Source: Longimicrobiales bacterium (GTDB lineage: Bacteria > Gemmatimonadota > Gemmatimonadetes > Longimicrobiales > Gaopeijiaceae). Taken from it: a DNA stretch of 64,000 nt. Below the pieces are notes generated by a model. The model searched no databases and was not told where the DNA came from. It saw nothing but the letters and a program-made list of their open reading frames with translations. Where the stretch lies: contig OZ220732.1 of assembly GCA_965116905.1 (NCBI GenBank), positions 3,232,001-3,296,000 on the forward strand, written 5' to 3'. Positions 20,174 through 40,662 of this stretch are shown piece by piece. The position numbers were made by a program, and so were the translations under genes. How positions within the stretch are numbered: position 1 is the first letter of the stretch; each line of letters begins with the position of its first letter.

Positions 20174-20922
20174 GCCATCACTCCTTCGTGGTCGACGACC
20201 GCGTCGCCGAGGCCCGCCGCCCGATTGGTGACGAGCGAGAAGGCCAGCACGCGCTGACCCCCGGCCCGCGCGATCGTGACCTCGGGGACAGTGGACATGC
20301 CCACCGCGTCCGCCCCTGCCGCACACAGCGCCCTGACCTCGGCGGGAGTCTCGAAGTTCGGGCCCGCAACCGCCCCGTAGGTGCCCCGCGGCAGCCGGAT
20401 CCCCTTTCGCAGCGCGACGGTTTCGGCCGCCGCCATCAGCGCCGGGTCGTACGGACGGCTCATGTCCGGGAACCTCGTCTCTCCGTCCGCGACGGGACCC
20501 GCCAGCGGAGCCCGGAACATGAGGTTGATGTGGTCGTCGACAAGCATCAGCGACCCCGGAACCAGGTCGCGGCGGATCCCGCCCACGGCGTTTGTGAGCA
20601 CCAGCGTACGGGCACCGAGGGCCCGGCCCACGCGCACCGGCGCCGCGACGACATCGGTGCCCACGCCCTCGTAGTAGTGGAAGCGGCCCGACTGCACGAG
20701 AACGGGCACACCCGCAATCCGGCCCAGCAAAAAGCTGCCCGCGTGGCCCTCCACCGACGTTGCGGGGAAGCCCGGAAGCTCGCCGAACGGCACCTCGACA
20801 GGGTTTTCCACGCACGCGGCCACACCGCCGAGTCCCGAACCGAGGACCACGTGCAGACGGGGGCGAATGCCGGCCCGGCCAAGTAGCACGCGCGCGCCCT
20901 CCCGGACCCGCGCCGGACTCAA
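20092..20922 (-). CDS. Purine-nucleoside phosphorylase, trimeric type
   Basis: VLGSGLG, GRFHYYEG, TNAVGG, GPNFETPAE, VGMSTVPE and LVTN. TTG start overlaps the nupC stop. Confidence 0.93.
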   Translation of the reverse strand: MSPARVREGARVLLGRAGIRPRLHVVLGSGLGGVAACVENPVEVPFGELPGFPATSVEGHAGSFLLGRIAGVPVLVQSGRFHYYEGVGTDVVAAPVRVGRALGARTLVLTNAVGGIRRDLVPGSLMLVDDHINLMFRAPLAGPVADGETRFPDMSRPYDPALMAAAETVALRKGIRLPRGTYGAVAGPNFETPAEVRALCAAGADAVGMSTVPEVTIARAGGQRVLAFSLVTNRAAGLGDAVVDHEGVMAYAEVAGGTLGALLESLIPALEGTGEK

Positions 20923-22427
20923 ATCAGCACCCCGGCGATCGCCGCGGTCATGAAGGCCGCGATCGAGCCGCCGATCATCGCCCGCAGCGCCAGCCGGGAC
21001 AGATCCTGCCGCCGGCGCGGCGCGATTCCCCCGATCCCTCCGATCTGGATCGCGATCGACGAGAAGTTGGCGAAGCCCGAAAGCGCATAGGTCGCGATCG
21101 TGGCCGACCGCGCGGACACCGACGATTCGGCCATCGTGTCGGCAAGTCCCAGGTAGGCCACGAATTCGGTGGCCACGGTCTTGAGCCCCATCAACGAGCC
21201 GACCGCGGCCGCGTCCTCCCATGCGACCCCCATCACCCAGGCGACCGGACTCAGTACCCAGCCGAGGATTCCTTCCAGCGACAGGCCCTGCACGCCCACC
21301 AGGCCACCCGCCCACCCCAGCACCGCGTTGACCAGCGCGATCAGCGCGAGGAAGGCCAGCAGCATCGCGCCGACGTTGAGCGCGAGGTGCAGCCCCTCTC
21401 CCGCCCCGCGGGCCGCCGCCTCGATCACGTTCACGTCGGTCCGCTCCAGGGTCGTCTTCAGCGTCCCGGCCGTCTCCGACACCTCCTCCTCGGGCACCAT
21501 CAGCTTGGCCACCACCAGCGCGGCCGGCGCCGACATCACCGAAGCCGCCATGAGGTGGCCCGCGATATCGGGAAAGAAGCCCACCAGCATCCCCGCGTAG
21601 GCGGCCATCACGCCTCCCGCCACCGTCGCGAAGCCGCCGGTCATCACCGCCATCAGTTCGGACCGCGTCATCCTGTCGACGAACGGCTTCACCAGCAGCG
21701 GCGCCTCGGTCTGCCCGACGAAGATGTTGCCGGCCGCCGAGAGCGTCTCCGCACCGCTCGTCTTCATGGTGCGCTGCATGACCCACGCGATGCCGCCCAC
21801 CACCTTCTGCATGATTCCGATGTGGTAGAACACGGTCATCAGCGAGGCGAAGAAGATGATCGTCGGGAGGACGTTGAAGGCGAAGAACGCACCGGTCCGC
21901 GCCACCTGCCGACCCTCGTCGACGAAGGCCCCGTTCCCGGGCTCCCCGACGCCGACCGGCACGTTGTTCCCCACGAGGTCGCCGAACACGAAGCGGGCGC
22001 CTTCGACGGTGAAGCCGACGGTCGCCAGGATCACGTCGTTGGCCGCATCGAAGATCCCGGCGCCCACCGTGGTCCTCAGAATCAGCACGCCGAACAGGAA
22101 CTGGAGGCCCAGTCCCCACAGCACGATGCGCCAGGGGATCCGGCGGCGGTTCACGCTCAGGGCCCAGGCGCCGAGCGCGAGCAGGACGACGCCGAAGAGA
22201 CCTCTCAGGCGGACGAGGGGGCCGGCGGCATCTTCCGTGGCCTGGATGGCGCCCTCGACAGCGCCCCGCCCGAGGTCCGCCGGACCGGCCCCGCCGCCGG
22301 GGACGTACGCGTGGAGTTCACCGGCCGAAATCAGGGGAAGCACGAGCGCCGCGAGAGCCCAGAGCCACCAGGGGAGTGGTTCGGCGGCGCGGGTCCGACT
22401 GCGGCTCGGGCACCGGAACATGATCAT
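20919..22427 (-). CDS. nupC: Concentrative nucleoside transporter (NupC/CNT)
   Basis: FAFNVLPTIIFF, NIFVGQTEAP, GGFATVAG, ASVMSAPAA, EFVAY and GFANFSSIAI. Start uncertain. Confidence 0.95.
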   Translation of the reverse strand: MIMFRCPSRSRTRAAEPLPWWLWALAALVLPLISAGELHAYVPGGGAGPADLGRGAVEGAIQATEDAAGPLVRLRGLFGVVLLALGAWALSVNRRRIPWRIVLWGLGLQFLFGVLILRTTVGAGIFDAANDVILATVGFTVEGARFVFGDLVGNNVPVGVGEPGNGAFVDEGRQVARTGAFFAFNVLPTIIFFASLMTVFYHIGIMQKVVGGIAWVMQRTMKTSGAETLSAAGNIFVGQTEAPLLVKPFVDRMTRSELMAVMTGGFATVAGGVMAAYAGMLVGFFPDIAGHLMAASVMSAPAALVVAKLMVPEEEVSETAGTLKTTLERTDVNVIEAAARGAGEGLHLALNVGAMLLAFLALIALVNAVLGWAGGLVGVQGLSLEGILGWVLSPVAWVMGVAWEDAAAVGSLMGLKTVATEFVAYLGLADTMAESSVSARSATIATYALSGFANFSSIAIQIGGIGGIAPRRRQDLSRLALRAMIGGSIAAFMTAAIAGVLI

Positions 22428-22537: not shown

Positions 22538-22601
22538 AAAACCTGCCAAAATGGCAGACCTGCACCGCGCCCAGACCCAAAAACCTGCCAAAATGGCAGA
22601 C
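22538..22601 (+). promoter_or_regulatory. Two identical 22-bp boxes containing the palindrome CTGCCA-AAA-TGGCAG; putative upstream activator sites
   Basis: aaaacctgccaaaatggcagac at 22538-22559 and 22580-22601, a 42-bp period. Confidence 0.7.
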
Positions 22602-22637
22602 TTTGCCCTCGAAATCCTTCATTTCGGCCCCGCCGTC

Positions 22638-22652
22638 CGGCACGCGCCTTGC
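22638..22652 (+). promoter_or_regulatory. Sigma-54 (-24/-12) promoter upstream of dnaK
   Basis: cGGCACgcgccTTGC, with GG at 22639-40 and GC at 22651-52 exactly 10 nt apart; consensus is TGGCAC-N5-TTGC. Confidence 0.7.
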
Positions 22653-22789
22653 CCATAGGAGGCCGGTTACCTTTGACATCGCCCGACTTGAGCGCCGGGA
22701 CGACCGGTGCGCCGGGACGGCTTGAGCGCAAAGGGGCGACTTGAACGCAACGGCCGGCGGGCGCCGGTCACGGAAAGGGAAGAAACGCA

Positions 22790-24748
22790 ATGGGCAAGAT
22801 CATCGGAATCGACCTCGGAACGACCAATTCGGTGGTCGCCGTCATGGAGGGCGGAGAGCCCACGGTCATACCGAACTCCGAGGGCGGGCGCACGACCCCG
22901 TCGGTCGTGGCGTTCGCGAAGGACGGCGAGCGGCTCGTCGGGCAGGTGGCCCGGCGGCAGGCGATCACAAACCCCGAAAACACCGTCTTTTCGATCAAGC
23001 GCTTCATGGGCATGCGTTACGGGGAGGTCGAGGCCGAGCGCAGGCGTGTACCGTACACCGTGACCCGCGACGGACAGGACCGTGTGGTCGTGAATCTGCC
23101 CAACGGGGGCAAGCCCTTCACCCCGCCCGAGCTGTCGGCCGTCGTGCTGCAGAAGATGCGGCAGACCGCGGAAGACTACCTGGGCACCTCGGTGACCGAG
23201 GCCGTCATCACGGTCCCCGCGTACTTCAACGACGCGCAGAGGCAGGCCACGAAGGACGCGGGGAAGATCGCCGGGCTGGATGTCAAGCGCATCATCAACG
23301 AGCCTACCGCGGCCGCGCTGGCCTACGGGCTCGACAAGAAGAAGGACGAGAAGATCGCGGTGTTCGACCTGGGCGGCGGCACCTACGACATCTCGATCCT
23401 GGAGATCGGCGACGGCGTCTTCGAGGTGAAGGCCACGAACGGGGACACGCACCTGGGCGGCGACGACTTCGACCAGGTCCTCATCGACTGGCTCGTCGCC
23501 GAGTTCAAGAAGGACCAGGGGATCGACCTGTCGAAGGACTCGATGGCGCTGCAGCGGCTCAAGGAAGCCGCCGAGAAGGCCAAGATGGAGCTGTCCTCGA
23601 CCACGTCGACCGACATCAACCTGCCCTTCATCACCGCGACCCAGGAGGGGCCCAAGCACCTCAACTACCAGCTCTCGCGCGCCAGGTTCGAGCACCTGGT
23701 CGACGAGCTGATCCAGCGCACGATCCCGCCGATGAGGAAGGCCCTCGCCGACGCCGGCATGACGCCCGACGACATCGACGAGGTGGTTCTGGTCGGCGGC
23801 TCGACGCGGATTCCGAAGATCCAGGAGGTCGTCGAGGAGTTCTTCGAGCAGGAGCCTCACCGGGGGGTCAACCCGGACGAGGTCGTCGCCGTGGGCGCGG
23901 CGATCCAGGGCGGCGTGCTGGCCGGCGACGTCAAGGACGTGCTGCTTCTCGACGTGACGCCCCTGACGCTCGGCATCGAGACGCTGGGCGGCGTGAGGAC
24001 CGCCCTGATCGAGCGCAACACGACGATCCCGACCAAGAAGATGGAGGTCTTCTCCACGGCCGAGGACACGCAGACGACGGTCGAGATCCACGTGCTCCAG
24101 GGCGAACGCGAGATGGCGATCGACAACCGCACGATCGGCAAGTTCCAGCTCACCGGGATCCCGCCGGCGCCGAGGGGCGTCCCGCAGATCGAGGTGACGT
24201 TCGACATCGACGCCAACGGCATCCTCCACGTGGCGGCGAAGGACCGCGCCACGGGCAAGGAGCAGAAGGTGCGGATCGAGGCGTCCAGCGGCCTGAGCGA
24301 CGCCGAGATCGACAAGATGGTGACGGACGCCGAGGCCCACGCCGCGGAAGACGAGTCGCGCCGGGAAGCGGCGGACGCCCGCAACCAGCTCGATTCCCTC
24401 GTCTACCAGGTCGAGAAGGACGGTGCGGAGTGGGGCGACAAGGTCTCCGAGGGCACGCGCGGCCGTCTGGACGCGGCGCTGGAGCGGGGGAAGAACGCGC
24501 TCAAGGGTGACGACACCGGCGAGATCAACGAGGCCCGCGACGAGCTGATGCAGGCTTTCAGCGCGGCGGGCCAGGAGATGTACCAGGCCCAGGCAGCGGA
24601 AGCGGCCACTGCGGAGCAGGAGGCCGGAGCCGAAGCCGGAGATCCCGGAGACGCGGGCGACGCGGGCGACGCGGGCGACGCGGCGGAGGCCGCGGATGAG
24701 GACGTCGTGGAAGCCGACTACGAAATCGTGGAGGAGGAGCGCGGATAG
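22790..24748 (+). CDS. dnaK: Hsp70 chaperone DnaK
   Basis: [25 protein letters not shown] and [15 protein letters not shown]. Confidence 0.99.
24650..24683 (+). repeat. 9-bp in-frame tandem repeat (Asp-Ala-Gly) in the DnaK tail
   Basis: gacgcgggc three times plus a partial copy. Confidence 0.85.
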
Positions 24749-24857: not shown

Positions 24858-26402
24858 ATGTATGATCCACTAAGAGCAAAGGCCAAAGCCGCCCTTTCGG
24901 TTGCGGGCTGCTTCCTCGTCGGGCTGGGCCTGGCCTCCCAGTTCGGCTTCGTGGAGGCCCCCGCGCCAGCCATTGTCGTCCAGACCGACGCGAGGGTCCC
25001 GGAGGAGGCTGTTCAGCCAGCCCTCGACCTGAGCCAGGCATTCGTCAACGTCGCCGACGCGGTCACGCCCGCGGTGGTGATGATCGAGGCGTCCCGCGCG
25101 CAGACACGCGAGCAGAGCGGATTCGACCGGTTCTTCCGACAGCAGCCGCAACGCGGCATGCCGGACATGGTCCAGGTCGGGGGCAGCGGGTTCATCGTCT
25201 CGGAAGACGGGTACGTGATGACCAACAACCACGTCATCGACAACGCCGAACGAATCACGGTTACGCTGCAGGACGGACGGACGTTCCGCGCGGAGGTCGT
25301 GGGGAGCGATCCCACCACCGACATCGCGGTCATCAGGATCGACGGCACCGGTCTGCCCACGGCATCCCTCGGGTCGTCCGCGGATGTCCGGGTCGGCGAA
25401 TGGGTGCTCGCGATCGGGAATCCCGGGTTCGCGCGGCGCGGCTCCCCCGACCTCGACTACACCGTCACGGCGGGGATCGTGTCGGCGCTGGGCCGGTCGC
25501 TGAGTCTGATCAACCGCAGTCTGTTCGCGGATCCGGAATTCACCGGAGATGCCCGCTTCGCCCTCGAGGACTTCATCCAGACGGACGCGGTCATCAATTC
25601 GGGCAACTCCGGCGGGCCGATGGTCAACCTTCGCGGACAGGTGATCGGGATCAACGCGGCGATCGTCAGCAACACGGGCGTCTACCAGGGGTACGGATTC
25701 GCCATCCCGATCGACCTGGCGCACCGCGTCATGGAGGACCTGGTCGCCTATGGGCACGTCAAGAGGGCCTACCTGGGCGTGAGCATCCGCGAGGTGTTCG
25801 CCGAAGACGCGGAATACCTCGGACTGCCGGCGGTCTCGGGCGCGTTCGTGGAGTCGGTCACGCCGGGAGAGCCCGCCGAGAGAGCCGGCCTGCGGCAATA
25901 CGACGTGATCACCGAGGTCGAGGGTGAACGCGTGGTGTCCGGCAACGACCTGCAGCACAAGATCGCGCTCAGGTCGCCCGGCGACCGGGTGCGGATCACG
26001 CTGTTCCGGGACGGAGCCCCGCGCGACGTCACGGTCAGGCTCGACGAGGCGCCGTTCTCCGGCGATGTCGCGGTCGCCGCGGCACCCGAGCCCCGGACGG
26101 CGGACAAGATCGGGATCGATGTCGTGGACATCACCCCGGAGATCGCCGACCAACTGCGCCTGGAGAGCACCGAGGGCGTCGTGGTCCGCGACGTTCAGGC
26201 CGGCGGCCCGGCCGCGCGCCGGAACATCGGGCCCCGCTGCGTCATCCGCCAGATCGACCGCCGCGCGATTCGGGACACCGACGATGTGGAGGCCGCGTTC
26301 CGCGACGTGGCGCCCGGCGACGTGGTCTCGCTGATCGCCGCCTGCCCCCGTGCCGACCAGGGCATGGTGGAGTCCATGTACAACATCCGCGTTCCGCGCT
26401 GA
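24858..26402 (+). CDS. DegP/HtrA serine protease with two PDZ domains
   Basis: N-terminal hydrophobic segment; catalytic triad motifs TNNHV, DIAV and IQTDAVINSGNSGGP; two PDZ-like regions. Confidence 0.96.
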   Translation: MYDPLRAKAKAALSVAGCFLVGLGLASQFGFVEAPAPAIVVQTDARVPEEAVQPALDLSQAFVNVADAVTPAVVMIEASRAQTREQSGFDRFFRQQPQRGMPDMVQVGGSGFIVSEDGYVMTNNHVIDNAERITVTLQDGRTFRAEVVGSDPTTDIAVIRIDGTGLPTASLGSSADVRVGEWVLAIGNPGFARRGSPDLDYTVTAGIVSALGRSLSLINRSLFADPEFTGDARFALEDFIQTDAVINSGNSGGPMVNLRGQVIGINAAIVSNTGVYQGYGFAIPIDLAHRVMEDLVAYGHVKRAYLGVSIREVFAEDAEYLGLPAVSGAFVESVTPGEPAERAGLRQYDVITEVEGERVVSGNDLQHKIALRSPGDRVRITLFRDGAPRDVTVRLDEAPFSGDVAVAAAPEPRTADKIGIDVVDITPEIADQLRLESTEGVVVRDVQAGGPAARRNIGPRCVIRQIDRRAIRDTDDVEAAFRDVAPGDVVSLIAACPRADQGMVESMYNIRVPR

Positions 26403-26691: not shown

Positions 26692-28005
26692 ATGAGCACC
26701 CTGGACGCATCCCGGCTGGAGGTGAAGGTCGTCAGCGGCGAAGGCTGCCGCCGGGACCTGGAGGTGGCCGTACCGATCGAATACCTCGAGGGCGAGCGGC
26801 GGGCCTTGACCCGGAGCTACGCCTCACGGATGAAACTGAAGGGTTTCCGCAAGGGCAGGGTCCCGGGACACGTGATCGCGCAGCGCTATGGAGCGGCGAT
26901 CGAGGAAGAGGCTGTCGAGCGGCTGGTGCGGAAGGCCTGCGACACCGCCATGGAACAGCATGAGCTGCGGCCGGTGACCGACGTGGATGTCAACGATGTC
27001 CGTCTGCCTGCCGGAGGGCCGCTGTCGTTCACCGCCTCATTCGAAGTTCGGCCCACGGTGCCGCTCGGGCGCATCGGCGGCTTCCGGGTCGAGCACCCGG
27101 GTGTGGACGTGCCAGGCGAGGCCGTGGACAGGATTATGGAACGGCTGCGGGGGGAGCACGCCGCCTGGCGCACCGCCGCCAACGGCCAGCCCGAGACGGG
27201 GGACTCGGTGACGGTGGCGCTGACACGGCTCGACATCGGTCCCGAGGAGAGCGACGAGGACGGGCCGGCCAGCCGGCAATACGACTTCATTCTCGGCCAG
27301 GGACAGGCGCTCCCCGACATCGAGGACGCGGTGCGGTCACTGGCCGCGGGCGACGCGGACGAGTTCGAGATCGCGTTTCCCGACGACTTCCCCGACGAGA
27401 GCCGGCGGGGCCGCAGCCAGCGGCTCCGGATCGAGCTGCTTTCCAGGCGCGTACCGGAGCTTCCCGACCTGGACGACGACTTCGCGCGGACGGTGGGAGA
27501 CTTCGAGGACCTGGACACACTGCGTGCCCGGATCGGCGAGGACCTGGAGCGCGAGGCGAGATCCGGTGCCGAGTCCGAAGTCAACAACCGGCTCATGCGC
27601 CTCGTCGTCGAAGCCAACCCGTTCGAGGTTCCCGAATCCATGGTGACCGCCTACACCGACGCGGTGATCAGGGATATTCAGGGGGAGGAGGGCAAGGAGG
27701 TGCAGGAGGCCGCCGAAAAGCTCAGGGAAGAGATCCGGCCCACCTCCGAATTCGCCGTGCGGCGCGAGCTGCTCTCGGCGCGGATCGCCGATGAGCACGA
27801 GCTGCATGCGTCGGCGGAGGACGTGGACGCCCGGGTGGAGGCCCTGGCCCGAAGCATGGGCGAGCCCCGCGCCAGGGTGCGTGCCCGTCTGCGCAAGTCC
27901 GGAGCGCTCCGCAGCATCGAGCGGGGGTTGACCGAAGCGAAGCTCTTCGCCTTTCTCCGGGAGCGGTCGGAGATCGTGGGAGCCCCCGACGAGGAGAAGT
28001 CATGA
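26692..28005 (+). CDS. tig: Trigger factor
   Basis: GFRKGRVP ribosome-binding motif, FPDDF, DDDFAR and FEVPESMV; lies upstream of clpP. Confidence 0.95.
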   Translation: MSTLDASRLEVKVVSGEGCRRDLEVAVPIEYLEGERRALTRSYASRMKLKGFRKGRVPGHVIAQRYGAAIEEEAVERLVRKACDTAMEQHELRPVTDVDVNDVRLPAGGPLSFTASFEVRPTVPLGRIGGFRVEHPGVDVPGEAVDRIMERLRGEHAAWRTAANGQPETGDSVTVALTRLDIGPEESDEDGPASRQYDFILGQGQALPDIEDAVRSLAAGDADEFEIAFPDDFPDESRRGRSQRLRIELLSRRVPELPDLDDDFARTVGDFEDLDTLRARIGEDLEREARSGAESEVNNRLMRLVVEANPFEVPESMVTAYTDAVIRDIQGEEGKEVQEAAEKLREEIRPTSEFAVRRELLSARIADEHELHASAEDVDARVEALARSMGEPRARVRARLRKSGALRSIERGLTEAKLFAFLRERSEIVGAPDEEKS

Positions 28006-28034
28006 GCATCGAAGGCACCGGAGGGCGATAGCGG

Positions 28035-28649
28035 ATGGCCATATTCCCGCCTTACGTGATCGAACGCACGAGCCGCGGCGAGCGCAGCTACGACATCTTC
28101 AGCCGGCTGTTGATGGACCGGATCGTGTTTCTGGGAAGCTCCATCAACGACCAGGTGGCCAACATCATCGTCGCGCAGCTGTTGTTCCTGGACGCCGATG
28201 ATCCGGACCGCGACATCTACCTCTACATCAACTCGCCGGGAGGCAGCGTATACGCCGGACTCGCCATCTTCGACACGATGAACCACCTGCGGGCGCCGGT
28301 TTCGACGTACTGCGTGGGCATGGCCGCGTCGATGGGCGCCCTCCTGCTGGCCTCGGGCGCGAAAGGGAGCCGGAGCGCGCTGCCCAACTCGCGCATCATG
28401 CTGCACCAGCCGTCTTCGGGCTACCAGGGCACCGCCGCGGACATCGAGATCGCGGCGAAGGAGGTGCTGGGAACCCGGGAACGGCTCAACCGGATCCTCG
28501 CGAAGCAGACCGGACAGACGATCAAGAAGATCAATGCCGACGTGGACCGGGACCGGTGGATGAGCGCCGAGGAGGCGGTTGCATACGGCCTGGTCGACCA
28601 GGTCCTGTCGAAGGAGAACGGCCGCAAGGCCGGATCCGATTCGAAATAG
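28035..28649 (+). CDS. clpP: ATP-dependent Clp protease proteolytic subunit
   Basis: [22 protein letters not shown] and RIMLHQP. Confidence 0.99.
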
Positions 28650-28659
28650 GAGGGACGCG

Positions 28660-29919
28660 ATGTCGAGCGACAAGCACCTGCGCTGCAGCTTCTGCGGCAA
28701 GTCGAAGGAGTCGGTCAAGAAGTTCATCTCCGGCCCGTCGGTATACATCTGCAACGAGTGCATCTCGCTGTGCAACGAGATCCTGGCCGAGGAAGAGGAG
28801 CGGGAGAGCCAGGAAACGTCCATCACCACCCTCACGCCCGCGGAGATCAAGGACTTCCTCGACGACTACGTGATCGGGCAGGAATCGGCGAAACGGTCGC
28901 TGGCGGTCGCCGTCTACAACCACTACAAGCGCGTCCACAAGCAGGGGAAGCTCGACGAGGTCGAGATCGACAAGGCCAACGTGCTGCTGGTGGGGTCCAC
29001 CGGAGTCGGGAAGACGCTGCTGGCGCAGACCCTGGCGCGCGTTCTGCAGGTTCCCTTCACCATCGCGGACGCCACCACGCTGACCGAGGCGGGGTACGTC
29101 GGCGAGGACGTCGAGAACATCCTCGTGCGGCTGCTTCAGGCCAGCGACTTCAACCTCAGCGAGTGCGAGCGCGGCATCGTCTACATCGACGAACTCGACA
29201 AGATCGCCCGCAAGTCGGAGAACCCGTCGATCACCCGGGACGTCTCGGGCGAAGGGGTCCAGCAGGCGCTCCTGAAGATCCTGGAAGGAACGGTGGCCAG
29301 CGTGCCCCCGCAGGGAGGCCGCAAGCACCCTCAGCAGGAGTACATCCAGATCGACACGCGCAGCATTCTGTTCATCTGCGGAGGGGCGTTCGAGGGACTG
29401 GACAAGATCATCGAGCAGCGCCTGGGCAAGCGGCAGATCGGGTTCGGAGGAGAGGACGAGGACGCCGAAGCCGCGGCGGACGACCGCTACGGTCTGGACG
29501 ACGACCCCATGGCGTGTCTCGAGCCCGAGGACCTGCAGCGCTTCGGGCTGATCCCCGAGCTGGTGGGGAGGCTGCCCGTCACCGTGTCGCTGGACGACCT
29601 GGACGAGGAGGCGCTCGTCCGCATCCTGCAGGAGCCCAGGAACGCGCTCGTGAAACAGTATCAGAAGATGTTCGAGATCGAGGGAATCGGGTTGACCTTC
29701 GATCCCGGAGCGCTGCGGGAGATCGCCCGCCAGACCTTTGGCCGCGGAACCGGCGCACGCGGATTGAGGGCCGTGCTGGAACGGATCATGCGCGACCTGA
29801 TGTTCGAGCTGCCGTCGCGCAGCGACGTGCGGGAGGTGGTCGTGACGCCCGAGTGCGCCACCGGCAGGGTTCCGCCGCTCCTCGTACTGCGGCCCGAGGC
29901 CCAGCGGAAAGAGGCCTGA
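28660..29919 (+). CDS. clpX: Clp protease ATP-binding subunit ClpX
   Basis: CSFCGK...ICNEC zinc domain, [14 protein letters not shown] and IGFG loop. Confidence 0.99.
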
Positions 29920-29994
29920 CGGCCCGTGGACATGGTCCAGCGCCTCACCGCTTCCGGTGCTCGCGCGGGCCGTTCCACGGACTAGGCGCCGGGC

Positions 29995-32415
<2,421 letters not shown>

Positions 32416-32425
32416 GGGCAGCGCC

Positions 32426-33034
32426 GTGGTTGTCCGCACTGTCGAGTTCGCCGGATCGGTGGTCGCGCCGGGGCAGCCCCACCCGGGAGCGCTGCCCCAG
32501 GTCGCCTTTGCAGGGCGGTCCAACGTCGGCAAGTCGTCGCTGATCAACCGCGTACTGGGGCGGCCCAGGCGCAAGGTCGCCCGTGTGTCGGCCTCGCCGG
32601 GAAAGACCCAGGCGCTCAACTTCTACGAGGTCAACGGGGCGTTCTTTCTGGTGGACCTGCCGGGGTCGGGGTACGCCAGGGCGCCCAGGGCCGTGCGGGA
32701 CTCGTGGCGGACGCTGGTTCGGAGCTACCTTGCGGGGTGCGAGGCACTGCGCGGGGTGGTATACCTGGTGGACTCCCGTCATCCGCCGACCGCGGGGGAC
32801 CTGGAGTTCGTCGACTACCTCGCCGAGACGGGGCTGCCAACCCTGATTGCGCTCACAAAGGTCGACAAGCTCAGGGCCACGGAGCGCGAGCGCGAGAGCG
32901 GCGTTGCGCGGCGTGTGACGGACCTCCTCGGGATCGCGGAGGAGCAGGTGCTGTCGACTTCCGCGCGCACCGGGGAGGGCGCCCCGGAAGTGCTCGACGC
33001 CATCGCGGCGCTGCTGGAACTGGAGGAGGAGTAA
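32426..33034 (+). CDS. engB: Ribosome biogenesis GTPase EngB/YsxC
   Basis: GRSNVGKSSLIN, PGKTQ, DLPG and TKVDK. Start uncertain. Confidence 0.95.
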   Translation: MVVRTVEFAGSVVAPGQPHPGALPQVAFAGRSNVGKSSLINRVLGRPRRKVARVSASPGKTQALNFYEVNGAFFLVDLPGSGYARAPRAVRDSWRTLVRSYLAGCEALRGVVYLVDSRHPPTAGDLEFVDYLAETGLPTLIALTKVDKLRATERERESGVARRVTDLLGIAEEQVLSTSARTGEGAPEVLDAIAALLELEEE

Positions 33035-33709: not shown

Positions 33710-35413
33710 TCAGACCTCTTCCCCGCTCTCCTGCAGGCCGTACTTCCTGACCTTGCGGTAGAGGGTGCGCTCCCCGATCCCGAGTATCTCGGCGGCCTGG
33801 CGCCGGTTCCACTCGACCGACTCGAGCACCGTCACGATGACCTCCCGCTCCATGTCGTCCAGGGTCATGCCGGGACGATAGGCGACGGCGCCCATGTCGC
33901 CGGCGACCTCGGGCGGCTGATCCGAGGGCTCGGTGGCGGCACCTGCCCCGGTGGGGGCGTCCGCTTCCGCAAGGATCTCCGTGTCCGCTTCCGCAAGGAT
34001 CTCCACGTCCGCATGGGGCAGCTCGCCGTCCCCCGTGCCGGTCTGCACCCGCTCATCGCCGGCGGGCTCGTCCCGGCCGGACGCGACGGCTCTCGCCGGT
34101 CGCTCGTAGACGATCTCGGCCGAAGGTTCGCCACCGTGCTCTTCGACCTGGAATGCCTCGAATTCGCGCCGGAGGTCCTCGATATCGACCTTCATCTCCA
34201 TCATCGTGCGGAAGATGAATTCGAGTTGGGGCCGGAGCGATTCGGCGCTGCCGTCACCACGCCGGGCGGGGCCGGGGCGGGTGGGCACCAGGGCGAGCGT
34301 CCCGTCCCCGGAGCGCACGTCGTCGGGAATGTCCTCGGCGCGGATCCGGCGACCCGGCGCGAGGACCACCATGCTCTCGATCAGGTTGCGCAACTCGCGC
34401 ACGTTTCCGGGCCACCGATGGCGGATCAGGATGTCCATCGCGTCGCTGGAGATCCCGCGGAAGGGACCGCGATCGTGGCGCTCCCCGGCTTCACGAATGA
34501 ATGCGTCCACAAGAAGCGGGATATCGTCCCGGCGGTGTCGAAGCGGTGGCAGGGCGATGGTCAGAACGTTGAGGCGATAGTAGAGGTCTTTTCGGAAATC
34601 TCCTGACACCACAAGGTGTTGCAGATGCTGGTTCGTCGCGGCCAGTATGCGGACATTCACGCGAATCAGCTTCTGGCCACCGACCCTGTGGAACTCCTGC
34701 TGCTCCAGCACACGGAGGAGCTTCGTCTGCGTCTGAGGCGGCATCTCCCCGATTTCGTCGAGGAAGATGGTGCCGCCGTTGGCCAGCTCGAACAGTCCCC
34801 GGCGCGAGTCGATCGCCCCGGTGAACGCTCCCTTCTCGTGGCCGAAGAGCTCGCTTTCGAGGAGGGTCTCGGAAAGCGCCGCGACGTTGACCGGGATGAA
34901 GCTCTTGTGGCGGCGGCGCGACAGAGCATGGATCCCCCGGGCCACCAGCTCCTTGCCGGTGCCCGACTCGCCCGTCACGAGGACCGTGGCGTGGACGGGG
35001 GCGATCTGGACGACGCGTTCGAGCACCTCCATCATTGCGTCGGTCTCACCCACGATCCCGGTCGCCCGCCGGAGCCGCTTGCGTTCGATCGCCCTCGTGC
35101 CAACCAGGACGATCTCCTCCGGGTCGGCCGGACGCGCGAATGCGAGGGTGATATCGGCCGAAGGCGTCGCCGCCCGCCCGGCCCCGACCACCGCCAGGAC
35201 AGGGACCCCCCGCTCCGTCGCCTGGCCGGCCTGTCGCTTGCCCGAGTCCGCATCGGCGCCCCCGGTGAACACGAGCAGAACCGGCTCTTCGACACTGGCG
35301 ACATCCTCGCCGGCGGTGAACAGCTCAACGCGGTAGCCGGCGTGGCGGAACCCGGCACGCAGCTCTCCGGCGAGCGGCAGGTCGTGCGTCGTGACGAGGA
35401 CGGTTTCGGCCAT
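33710..35413 (-). CDS. Sigma-54-dependent enhancer-binding protein (pseudo-receiver, AAA+, Fis-type HTH)
   Basis: GESGTGKE, ESELFGHEKGAFTGA, FLDEIGE, WPGNVREL and a C-terminal HTH (AAEILGIGERTLYRK). Confidence 0.96.
   Translation of the reverse strand: MAETVLVTTHDLPLAGELRAGFRHAGYRVELFTAGEDVASVEEPVLLVFTGGADADSGKRQAGQATERGVPVLAVVGAGRAATPSADITLAFARPADPEEIVLVGTRAIERKRLRRATGIVGETDAMMEVLERVVQIAPVHATVLVTGESGTGKELVARGIHALSRRRHKSFIPVNVAALSETLLESELFGHEKGAFTGAIDSRRGLFELANGGTIFLDEIGEMPPQTQTKLLRVLEQQEFHRVGGQKLIRVNVRILAATNQHLQHLVVSGDFRKDLYYRLNVLTIALPPLRHRRDDIPLLVDAFIREAGERHDRGPFRGISSDAMDILIRHRWPGNVRELRNLIESMVVLAPGRRIRAEDIPDDVRSGDGTLALVPTRPGPARRGDGSAESLRPQLEFIFRTMMEMKVDIEDLRREFEAFQVEEHGGEPSAEIVYERPARAVASGRDEPAGDERVQTGTGDGELPHADVEILAEADTEILAEADAPTGAGAATEPSDQPPEVAGDMGAVAYRPGMTLDDMEREVIVTVLESVEWNRRQAAEILGIGERTLYRKVRKYGLQESGEEV
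33959..34004 (-). repeat. In-frame duplication with a 24-bp period (EILAEAD twice) in the bEBP linker
   Basis: gtccgcttccgcaaggatctcc at 33959 and 33983. Confidence 0.85.
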
Positions 35414-37478: not shown

Positions 37479-39020
37479 TCAGAGGATGTAGCGGCTGAGG
37501 TCGTCATCGGAGGCGATGCGATCCAGCCGTTTCCTGACGAACGCCTCGGTCACCACGACCGTCTCGCCGCGCTGTTCATCGGGGAGGTCGAAGAGCAGCT
37601 CCTCCAACAGCGTGGTGAGAACGGTGCGGAGCCGGCGGGCGCCGATATTCTCCATGCGATCGTTGAGATCCGCCGCGATCCGGGAGATCTCTTCGATCCC
37701 GTCGTCCGTGAACTCGACCGACGCACCCTCCGTCTCGACCAGCGCGCTGTATTGGCGGACCAGTGCGTTGCGGGGCTCGCGCAGGATCCGCGCGAATTCG
37801 GCGGCGCCCAGGTTCTGGAGTTCCACCCGGATCGGGAAACGGCCCTGCAGCTCGGGGATGAGGTCGGACGGCTTCGCCACGTGGAAGGCCCCGGCAGCGA
37901 TGAAGAGCATGTGATCGGTGCGGACGAAGCCGTACTTGGTCTGAACGTTGCAGCCCTCCACGATCGGGAGCAGGTCTCGCTGGACCCCCTCCCGGCTCAC
38001 GTCGGGACCCGTGCCGGCGCGCTTGCCCGCGACCTTGTCGATCTCGTCGAGGAAGATGATCCCGATTTCCTCGGCGCGATCCAGCGCCTCGTTCACCACC
38101 TCGTCCATGTCCACCAGGCGATCCAGCTCCTCCTGGAGCAGCACGCGCCTCGCCTCGCCGATGGTCACCGTGCGGCGCTTCGACCGCTTCGGCAACATGT
38201 CCTGGAGCATTTCCGTGAACTGGAGATCCATGCCCTCCATCCCGCCCACCGGGAACATCATCCCGCCCATGGGCGAGTTCTGCTGGACGTCCAGCTCGAC
38301 CGTACGATCTTCCAGGTGGCCCTCGCGAAGCAGTTTGCGCAGCTTCTCCCTCGTTCGGGCCCGCCGTTCGGCGATCGACGCGTCGCCGTTGGGGTCGGCC
38401 CCACGGGCGCGCGATGTGCCACCCGGCCCCGCGACGAAGACCTTGCCGGGAGACTGCGGACCGGCCGCGGGCCGCGCCGGCTTCGAGTCGTCGGCCCGGC
38501 CCTGCGCCGAGGGTGCCGAGGGCACGGCCGAATCGGGGAGGAGGAGGTCGAGCAGCCGCTCTTCCACCAACCGCTCGGCCTCGGCCTCGACTTCGTCTTC
38601 GCGGCTCGCCCTGACCATTGCCACGGCCGTGTCGACCAGGTCGCGGACCATGGACTCGACGTCCCGGCCCACATAGCCGACTTCGGTGAACTTGGAGGCC
38701 TCGACCTTGACGAACGGCGAGCCTGCCAGCCTGGCGAGGCGCCGTGCGATTTCGGTCTTCCCCACCCCGGTAGGCCCGATCATGATGAGGTTGTTCGGCA
38801 GGATTTCCTCGCGCAACTCGTCTTCCACCTGCTGCCGCCGCCAGCGATTGCGGAGCGCGATGGCAACCGCCTTCTTCGCCTCGTCCTGGCCGATGATGTA
38901 CTTGTCGAGTTCGGCTACGACCTCACGGGGCGTGAGCTGATCGAGCCAGCGGGGGCCCTCCTCCTGCGACGCCTGCTCGACGGGCGCGGAAGTGTCGGCG
39001 GAAGCGGTTGCTGATGTCAT
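37479..39020 (-). CDS. hslU: HslU ATPase
   Basis: [31 protein letters not shown] and ENIGARRL. Confidence 0.98.
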
Positions 39021-39586
39021 GCTGGGTCCAGTTCCAGGACGGTAATCTCGCGATTCGTGTACACGCAGATGTCGGCGGCGATCTCCAGCGCGCGGCGGGC
39101 GATCCCGGCGGCCTCCATGTCGGAGCTATCGAGGAGAGCGCGGGCGGCGGCCAGCGCATACGCGCCCCCCGAGCCGATGGCGAGCACCGGCTTGTCGGGC
39201 TCGATGACGTTGCCGTCACCGCCCACCAGGAAAAGGTGGTCCCGGTCGGCGACCGCGAGGAGGGCCTCGAGGCGGCGGAGGTAGCGGTCGGTCCGCCATT
39301 CCTTGGCCAGCTCGACACACGCCCTCGGCAGGTTCGACGGCCATCGTTCCAGCTTGCCCTCCAGCTTCGCGAACAGGGTGAAGGCGTCGGCCACCGCCCC
39401 CGCGAAGCCTGCGAGCACGCGCCCCTCCTTCAGCAGCCTGACCTTGCGCGCTTCTCCCTTGACCACGGTGTCTCCCATTGTCACCTGCCCGTCACCCGCC
39501 ATGGCGACACGGCCGCCGCGGGCCACCGCGATCACGGTGGTAGCGTGGACGGAGGCACCCGGGACAAGCGATGACGCGGGCTTCAT
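39017..39586 (-). CDS. hslV: HslV protease
   Basis: HATTVIAV (catalytic Thr), AGDGQVT and AIGSGG. Confidence 0.98.
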
Positions 39587-39691
39587 TCGCAGGGGGCTCC
39601 AGGATGGTCGGGCGTTGCGGTTCGAGCGCAGCGGACGCGGAGGCTCAACGGCAGCACGAGGGGGTGTAGCCTTAAAAGCTAGGTACGGTCA

Positions 39692-39745
39692 TCCACGGCC
39701 GGAAGTCCACGGCCGGAATCCGCGACCGAAATCCACGGCCGGAAG
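39692..39745. repeat. Four copies of a 13-14-bp tandem repeat between xerC and hslV
   Basis: tccacggccggaa(g) at 39692, 39706 and 39732, with a degenerate copy at 39719. Confidence 0.85.
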
Positions 39746-39756
39746 TGCTCGGCCTG

Positions 39757-40662
39757 CTAGGCTCGTGGATGCGCACCCTTGTAGACGCGCCGGAGCCGCT
39801 CCTTCGAGGTGTGGGCATAGATCTGGGTGGTGCTCAGTGACGCGTGGCCCAGCAACTCCTTGACCGCCATGAGATCGGCGCCCGCGTCGAGGAGGTGGGT
39901 GGCAAAGCTGTGGCGGAGCGAATGGACGGACAGGCCCGAGGCGTCGGCAAAGGCCGCGAGGACCTGTCGAACGTATCGCTGGATCTGCCTGTTGGACAGG
40001 CGGCGGCCGTGACGCCCCACCAGCAGGGCCCTGGAGTCGCTCCGCGCCACCTCTGCACGGCGGGGGAGGTAGCCGGCCACGGCGCGCGCGGCTGAGTCCG
40101 TGACCGGCACGATACGTTCCTTCCGGCCCTTCCCGAACACGCGCATCTGACCCCGCGCAAGATCGAGGGACCGGAGGTTTAGCGCACTCAGCTCCGCGAG
40201 GCGGATCCCGCTGCCGTACAGCAGTTCGAGAATGACCAGTAGACGGGTCTCGACCAGACCGTTCTCCTCGGCCGCCCGTACCTCCGCCCAGCGAAAGAGC
40301 TCGGACATCTCCTCGGTTCGCACGTGGGCGGGCAGCGTACGGTCGAGCTTCGGGCCGCGGACGGGGCGGGCCGGGTTCGACGGGATCTCCCCCTCCCGAT
40401 GCAGGTAGCGAAACAGTCCCCGCACCGCCGACAGCTTGCGGGCGACCGTGCGGGGCGCCAGCCCGCGGCGTCCCGCGTCGCCCAGGAAGGCACGAATGAC
40501 GCTCCGGTCGATGTCGTCCCACCTGAAGTCGTCGCGACCCAGGTGGCGGCCGGCGAAGGCCTCGAGATCGCCGAGGTCCCGGCGATAGGCCGCGACCGTG
40601 TGGGCAGACAGATTGCGAGCGACCTCCAGGTGTTCGAGGAAGCGCACGGTCTCCCGCCTCAT
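39757..40662 (-). CDS. xerC: Tyrosine recombinase XerC
   Basis: GIRLAEL, GKGRKER, HSLRHSFATHLL and LGHASLSTTQIY; sits in the housekeeping trmFO-hslV context. Confidence 0.93.
   Translation of the reverse strand: MRRETVRFLEHLEVARNLSAHTVAAYRRDLGDLEAFAGRHLGRDDFRWDDIDRSVIRAFLGDAGRRGLAPRTVARKLSAVRGLFRYLHREGEIPSNPARPVRGPKLDRTLPAHVRTEEMSELFRWAEVRAAEENGLVETRLLVILELLYGSGIRLAELSALNLRSLDLARGQMRVFGKGRKERIVPVTDSAARAVAGYLPRRAEVARSDSRALLVGRHGRRLSNRQIQRYVRQVLAAFADASGLSVHSLRHSFATHLLDAGADLMAVKELLGHASLSTTQIYAHTSKERLRRVYKGAHPRA

Follow-up and report, generated by a model that had tools for sequence, protein, structure and literature searches.

Control of dnaK by sigma-54 has already been published for Flavobacterium (PMC9723704). 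Sigma-54 (SM4) promoters were mapped in Flavobacterium psychrophilum at groES, lon, dnaK, grpE, htpG and clpB, and the searchable text of that article reports induction on blood agar and upon osmotic, plasma and freshwater exposure, leaves heat unmentioned and names neither an enhancer nor an activator (PMC9723704). A sigma-54 chaperone cluster comprising the same gene classes was predicted for Planctomycetota and Bacteroidota; the main text of that study contains 0 occurrences of Gemmatimonadota, and its searchable passages give no enhancer or activator (PMC12316311). In Myxococcus xanthus, HsfB-HsfA activates lonD and a kinase phosphorylates HsfA, according to the searchable text of PMC9109919. 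Enhancers of the NtrC type need a distance of at least 70 bp and tolerate kilobases, as stated in the searchable part of PMC7408454. Literature searches, with most subscription journals and supplements outside their coverage, did not turn up the motif, the activator or the targeting by integrases that are presented below. Searches with the motif spellings returned two unrelated papers only, and the searchable text of PMC3162934 mentions Gemmatimonas only in a reference.

We analyzed a stretch of 64,000 nucleotides (hereafter the window) from a Longimicrobiales bacterium of the phylum Gemmatimonadota, in which dnaK is preceded by palindromic boxes and a -24/-12 element. Like F. psychrophilum, this genome has predicted sigma-54 promoters at dnaK, clpB and lon (PMC9723704, searchable text); like Bacteroidota, it has a putative activator of an orthologous clade and the same box upstream of dnaK. 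The Gemmatimonadota protein retains a pseudo-receiver, unlike the Bacteroidota forms, which are without any N-terminal domain. The arrangement also recalls the NtrC type, with paired palindromes upstream of a -24/-12 element and a GAFTGA AAA+ activator carrying a Fis-type HTH. It differs in that the sites of the phylum are strictly phased and most often lie at about -41, so that the 70-bp distance of NtrC enhancers is kept at this dnaK promoter (-72 and -114) but not phylum-wide. From the sequence evidence set out below, we consider it probable that a sigma-54 promoter, the boxes as its enhancer and an orphan bEBP as its activator together explain the control of this dnaK gene.

The predicted dnaK promoter and its surroundings

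The dnaK gene (22790..24748, + strand) encodes a protein of 652 aa matching NF001413 and TIGR02350 above cut-off. The first-pass annotation had described two identical 22-bp boxes, 42 bp apart, upstream of this gene, and both were confirmed on the + strand at 22538..22559 and 22580..22601. The distal box, a predicted activator site, contains the palindromic core CTGCC-AAAAT-GGCAG at 22543-22557, and the core of the strong proximal box lies at 22585-22599. Their centres, at about -114 and -72 from the predicted +1, agree with the earlier estimates of about 110 and 70 bp before the start; the distal box is 89 bp and the proximal box 47 bp from the -25 G, the latter in phase. The GG-N10-GC element noted in the same annotation is present as a sigma-54 -24/-12 element at 22638..22653 on the + strand (CGGCACGCGCCTTGC; GG at 22639-40, GC at 22651-52), so that the +1 is predicted at about 22664. 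A degenerate half-box that had been overlooked (22617..22629, + strand) lies 16 bp from the -25 G, at about -41. It is a weak candidate, supported by this location, the commonest box position of the phylum, and not by its matrix score (-1.7 bits).

The 15-mer CTGCCAAAATGGCAG occurs in 3 copies in the 4.2-Mb genome, versus 0.0013 expected under a 5th-order Markov model. The loose pattern TG(C/T)CA-N3-TG(G/A)CA put forward earlier showed no enrichment by itself, with 11 matches at N3 versus 3-10 at other spacers, and a 2-mismatch box search of the window gave matches at chance level. The reported lack of CIRCE before dnaK was borne out, the sole full CIRCE of the genome preceding groES, and hrcA, grpE and dnaJ, described as not adjoining dnaK, are all three located elsewhere in the genome. 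No Rfam family was found in the dnaK promoter, and a scan with an IHF-consensus pattern detected no site at dnaK or sHSP. The predicted dnaK leader contains three 12-bp repeats (CGACTTGAGCGC-like) at 22684-22748, whose copy number differs among close relatives and which contain no HAIR match. Regarding RNA, one sponge metatranscriptome contains this stretch, in DNA-like contigs whose depth is flat through the intergenic DNA and the promoter.

A divergent transporter gene (20919..22427, - strand), which we take from its sequence to be NupC-like, has its own sigma-70-like site at 22462-22433 and lies outside the regulon. Downstream of dnaK, at a distance of 110 bp, is a gene for a DegP/HtrA-like protease with trypsin and PDZ domains (24858..26402, + strand). 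It is followed by a tig-clpP-clpX-lon-engB cluster (26692..33034, + strand), upstream of which no box was found; lon was tested by family match, and the remaining names are our assignments from sequence. The candidate activator gene (33710..35413, - strand) is 11 kb from the dnaK promoter boxes. Genes at 37479-40662, presumably hslU-hslV-xerC from their sequence, precede argF-gcvT and the candidate activator gene in the same orientation, which places the activator within a proteostasis neighbourhood.

Distribution of the box in the genome, the phylum and the FCB group

The genome consists of one 4.2-Mb contig, is 97% complete and has 3297 called genes. A scan allowing at most 2 mismatches returned 20 box matches at 7 places. 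Arrays of 3, 2, 2 and 5 boxes precede lon, clpB, dnaK and an Hsp20 gene, respectively, and clpB has one more box if 3 mismatches are allowed. The other places are an orphan 6-box array beside an integrase, a single box before a small ORF, and one intragenic match. With the matrix, at least 2 boxes within 300 bp upstream were found for 6 of the 3297 called genes, namely sHSP, clpB, lon, dnaK and two divergent neighbours. The genome encodes rpoN, named as a check in the first-pass annotation, as well as a GAFTGA bEBP. At 1732530-1732870 (L055), a single box and a strong -24/-12 element, 18 bp apart, lie before an unannotated 81-aa ORF with a signal-like N-terminus; this ORF is a possible further member of the regulon.

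Because groES has a CIRCE and hrcA is present (beside dnaJ), control of the chaperone genes appears to be split. In this respect the genome differs from F. psychrophilum: groES is under CIRCE, no box was found at grpE, and htpG, earlier listed among the genes to be checked for enrichment, was not found in this genome. Pattern scans with consensus patterns gave no match to HAIR or CtsR operators. The clpB gene of this genome has no canonical -24 GG and a best -24/-12 score of -4.3, and lon scores 1.2 bits. The genus clpB promoter (3108060-3108100; L074, L098) keeps its boxes, but the -24 GG is replaced by GC or GA, 12 bp from the nearest box; the site could be of the sigma-54 kind in degenerate form, or a promoter of another type.

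To assess conservation, 91 dnaK upstream regions were gathered from genus to phylum, and 86 were kept after dropping 3 duplicates and 2 truncated regions. A -24/-12 element (PWM at least 9 bits) was found at 84/86 loci, and a box at most 200 bp upstream also at 84 of the 86, so that the motif pair is indeed found upstream of orthologous dnaK genes. CIRCE was found at none of the 86. In shuffled upstream DNA, the box appeared in a mean of 1.4 of 82 loci (maximum 5). Measured from the -25 G, box centres clustered at 16, 27, 37, 47, 58, 79 and 89 bp, the commonest position being 16 bp (about -41 from the start), with a phasing of R = 0.67 at 10.5 bp (n = 128, kin not being independent). Many loci of two families (f4 and f5) have a single box, and flanks diverge among relatives while boxes do not. 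In part of family f5 (L138-L142), the -24 element of dnaK reads GGCC instead of GGCA, and the boxes are kept.

As the dnaK loci that were counted first had also served to train both matrices, for box and promoter, other genes are a fairer test; related genomes among these loci are, moreover, not independent. Among genes not used for training, sHSP had a -24/-12 element (at least 6 bits) in 30/30 cases and a box in 29/30, and clpB a -24/-12 element in 22/30 and promoter plus box in 18/30. For groES, promoter plus box was found in 3/30 and CIRCE in 24/30. The lineage-wide proteostasis regulon suggested in the first-pass annotation is therefore supported by sequence at the orthologous promoters of dnaK, sHSP and most clpB genes, and would not include groES, which mostly has a CIRCE. 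A strict box-plus-promoter pattern matched in only 1 of 5 genomes; a looser one matched in 4 of 4 other genomes, with 8 versus 3 control matches.

Relatives of the candidate activator were found in Bacteroidota, Chlorobiota, Ignavibacteria, KSB1, Calditrichota and Fibrobacterota. They share a common post-AAA helix and an ERTLYRK recognition helix across the FCB group, and they group together with an SH-aLRT of 96 in a quick tree whose four outgroup rows are on long branches. Of 30 other FCB dnaK loci, 2 were too short; among the 28 examined, 19 had a -24/-12 element and 13 of these 19 a box (shuffle mean 1.6), in a phase about 4 bp further out (20/30/41 versus 16/27/37). At the remaining 9 of the 28, no -24/-12 element was found within 300 bp, in several cases because dnaK lies inside an operon. 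In Bacteroidota and Ignavibacteria (L285-L326), a conserved gene for a lipoprotein-like protein of 165-185 aa, perhaps LptE-like, follows the activator ortholog. A relative labelled Planctomycetota (L313) combines this recognition helix with a receiver that looks intact, which suggests a two-component ancestor.

The candidate activator and its proposed mode of action

The genome encodes five bEBPs, four with a Pfam receiver; the protein encoded at 33710-35413 is the only one without it (no PF00072 match). It comprises a pseudo-receiver, a GAFTGA AAA+ domain, an extra post-AAA helix, a long linker and a Fis-type HTH. The phospho-Asp position is occupied by Thr-Gly in this protein and by Asp in the other four, although an ortholog was modelled with a receiver-like fold of five strands. 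Like HsfA, the candidate is a bEBP that would drive a heat-shock protease gene (PMC9109919, searchable text); unlike HsfA, it has neither the phospho-Asp nor an adjoining kinase gene. The stretch between the WPGN motif and the recognition helix measures 149-253 residues among 30 orthologs from Gemmatimonadota and 129-185 among 39 further relatives, versus 75-93 in the four ordinary bEBPs. The predicted homodimer of post-AAA helix and HTH scored 0.05 (mark 0.42), which speaks neither for nor against it. A Foldseek search with the activator gave generic bEBP matches only, and no NCBIfam family matched it at cut-off.

Of 121 genomes of the phylum, 114 contain a match to the candidate activator at E <= 1e-98, and its gene lies at most 30 kb from dnaK in at least 22 genomes, 5 of them from another class. 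It is the only bEBP in G171, G159, G121 and G143, assemblies that are 95-98% complete and three of which belong to one genus. All four have rpoN, boxes and a -24/-12 element at dnaK. Since sigma-54 needs a bEBP, the protein would be the activator there by elimination, if the assemblies are complete. G150 has box and -24/-12 element at dnaK, yet its best activator match (4e-79) is not at ortholog level, in an assembly of 160 contigs. The orphan bEBP is the likely activator at the boxes.

In the mechanism that we propose, the sigma-54 promoter at 22638-22653 probably drives dnaK, and this bEBP probably binds both TGCCA-N3-TGGCA palindromes. HTH dimers would sit on the boxes along one DNA face, and the tether of the AAA+ ring, which exceeds that of ordinary bEBPs by about 55-180 residues, would let the ring reach sigma-54 and open the promoter; a single site at about -41 would then suffice without a DNA loop. 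As the usual Asp is missing, so that no phosphorylation occurs there, the signal probably passes via the shared post-AAA helix, where, speculatively, chaperone titration might act. The same activator may also turn on clpB, lon and the small heat-shock gene, with HrcA/CIRCE running groESL.

The proximity of the boxes to the promoter could also be taken to mean that they are operators of a repressor or of an architectural protein and that the sigma-54 promoter receives its activation from some other place. At 16 bp, the most frequent box lies right beside the -24 element, which is under the 70-bp minimum given for NtrC in the searchable part of PMC7408454, and strict phasing would fit a bending or contact protein. 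However, four genomes have a single bEBP, the box is the only conserved upstream motif that was seen, many loci of families f4 and f5 have one box only, and the recognition helix of the bEBP is near-invariant wherever the box is found. We therefore regard this reading as unlikely. Somewhat less credit still is due to the idea that promoter and enhancer are correctly identified and that the activator is another bEBP, namely one of the four two-component types, acting like HsfA. Four canonical receiver bEBPs are indeed encoded here, and lonD of Myxococcus is activated by HsfA (PMC9109919, searchable text), but none of the four occurs in the single-bEBP genomes. The planctomycete-labelled relative with a receiver, which may be of the same lineage, has the same recognition helix. 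We thus retain the orphan bEBP acting at the boxes as the preferred explanation.

Integrase elements ending at the box

A 10.5-kb element at 3928270-3938850 (L048), encoding a tyrosine integrase (PF00589) and a relaxase (PF03432), is inserted at the sHSP array. Its flanks are duplicated box arrays, in the form of 124-bp repeats with 90% identity; an element in G010 has a duplication of 54 bp. With a tyrosine integrase and direct repeats at both ends, these elements resemble integrative mobilizable elements. The orphan 6-box array forms its far (right) end and is a diverged second array, as if captured from an earlier host site. The integrase family was found in 49 of 53 genus genomes, and the best 40 of several hundred matching loci were examined. 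Among these 40, 20 of the 30 loci with at least 80% identity end exactly at a box, versus 1 of the 10 more distant ones. The targets include dnaK (G004, G013), lon (G010, G060), clpB (G004, G007, G009, G062 and G065, the last judged by flanking gene) and sHSP. The PF03432 query found no relaxase in five other complete elements.

In this genus, the junctions of tyrosine-integrase elements fall on the box, which is restored on either side of the insertion. Among the 16 long loci that were inspected, 6 have a box at each element end. When aligned with G062, the intact clpB promoter of the present genome splits into two pieces, 12.2 kb apart, that overlap by exactly the 15-bp box. At dnaK, the orthologous distal box is the element junction in G013, G004 and G014 (a remnant). 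Element ends adjoin 7/30 sHSP and 3/26 dnaK promoters in the genus. As the box is regenerated at both ends, no promoter loses its complete box on insertion. Tyrosine-integrase elements that target tRNA genes, res-site hunters and REP-targeting IS elements likewise insert at specific sites and restore them. The elements described here differ in their target, a predicted site for a transcription factor that recurs at several promoters of one genome. An integrase whose elements end exactly at the box, at dnaK, clpB, lon and sHSP promoters, is new within the literature searched.

Sister copies of the integrase end in tRNA-Pro, -Ile, -Val or -Arg genes or in other short palindromes. We considered a retargeting of the integrase from tRNA-Pro, whose gene has the same CTGC-N7-GCAG arms, and found this direction unsupported: the tRNA-Pro copy nests in a sister group, and the box-targeting copies are not one clade (FastTree, 38 of the 40 loci). 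Six more copies of the family, at 66708, 1819547, 1858731, 2193873, 3482411 and 3501048, have different targets: the end of one copy is a tRNA-like sequence, and two others finish in short palindromes similar to CTGCC-N5-GGCAG. In another genome (L058, G024), an element occupies a box array that precedes a -24/-12-like site and the gene of an exported, Tat-like protein, possibly another regulon member.

That integrase elements end at the box, including at 3 of the 26 genus dnaK loci, and that box arrays are duplicated raises the question of whether the identical boxes are integration or excision scars with no regulatory role. This is very improbable, as conservation and phasing of the boxes extend through the phylum and to Bacteroidota, as element-free relatives carry the same arrays, and as flanks diverge where boxes do not. 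The enhancer would therefore predate the elements, which may account for some changes in copy number and not for the motif. Least credible of all is transcription of dnaK from a sigma-70-family or sigma-32 promoter with TTGACA at 22673 and an incidental -24/-12 element: the genome has 16 sigma-70-family protein matches and close relatives keep this TTGACA, but it has no matching -10, no sigma-70-type promoter was found on the + strand before dnaK, no RpoH passed the family cut-off (best 156 bits versus 323), and TTGACA is lost beyond close kin where GG-N10-GC persists. An additional promoter may nevertheless exist. Sigma-54 control of dnaK through TGCCA-N3-TGGCA, as the first-pass annotation had proposed, is hence supported at the level of sequence by the presence of rpoN and by conserved elements.

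For Bacteroidota and their relatives, sigma-54 chaperone promoters are on record, with no named activator or operator in searchable papers. The present analysis names a candidate gene and a 13-bp site for testing, with orthologs in tractable Bacteroides, Chitinophaga and Flavobacteriales. If true, sites at -41 would break the textbook distance rule for sigma-54 enhancers. The targeting of a transcription-factor site by an integrase would be an unusual safe-harbour strategy, and it provides independent support for the box as a distinct element. A broader and more tentative possibility, which we hold to be doubtful at present, is that the orphan bEBP could be a master proteostasis regulator of the FCB superphylum, independent of phosphorylation, governed via its post-AAA helix and acting from -41 by a long protein tether in place of DNA looping, and that "enhancer-hunting" elements might use its operator as a multi-copy landing pad, copy or transport enhancer arrays and thereby rewire the regulon.
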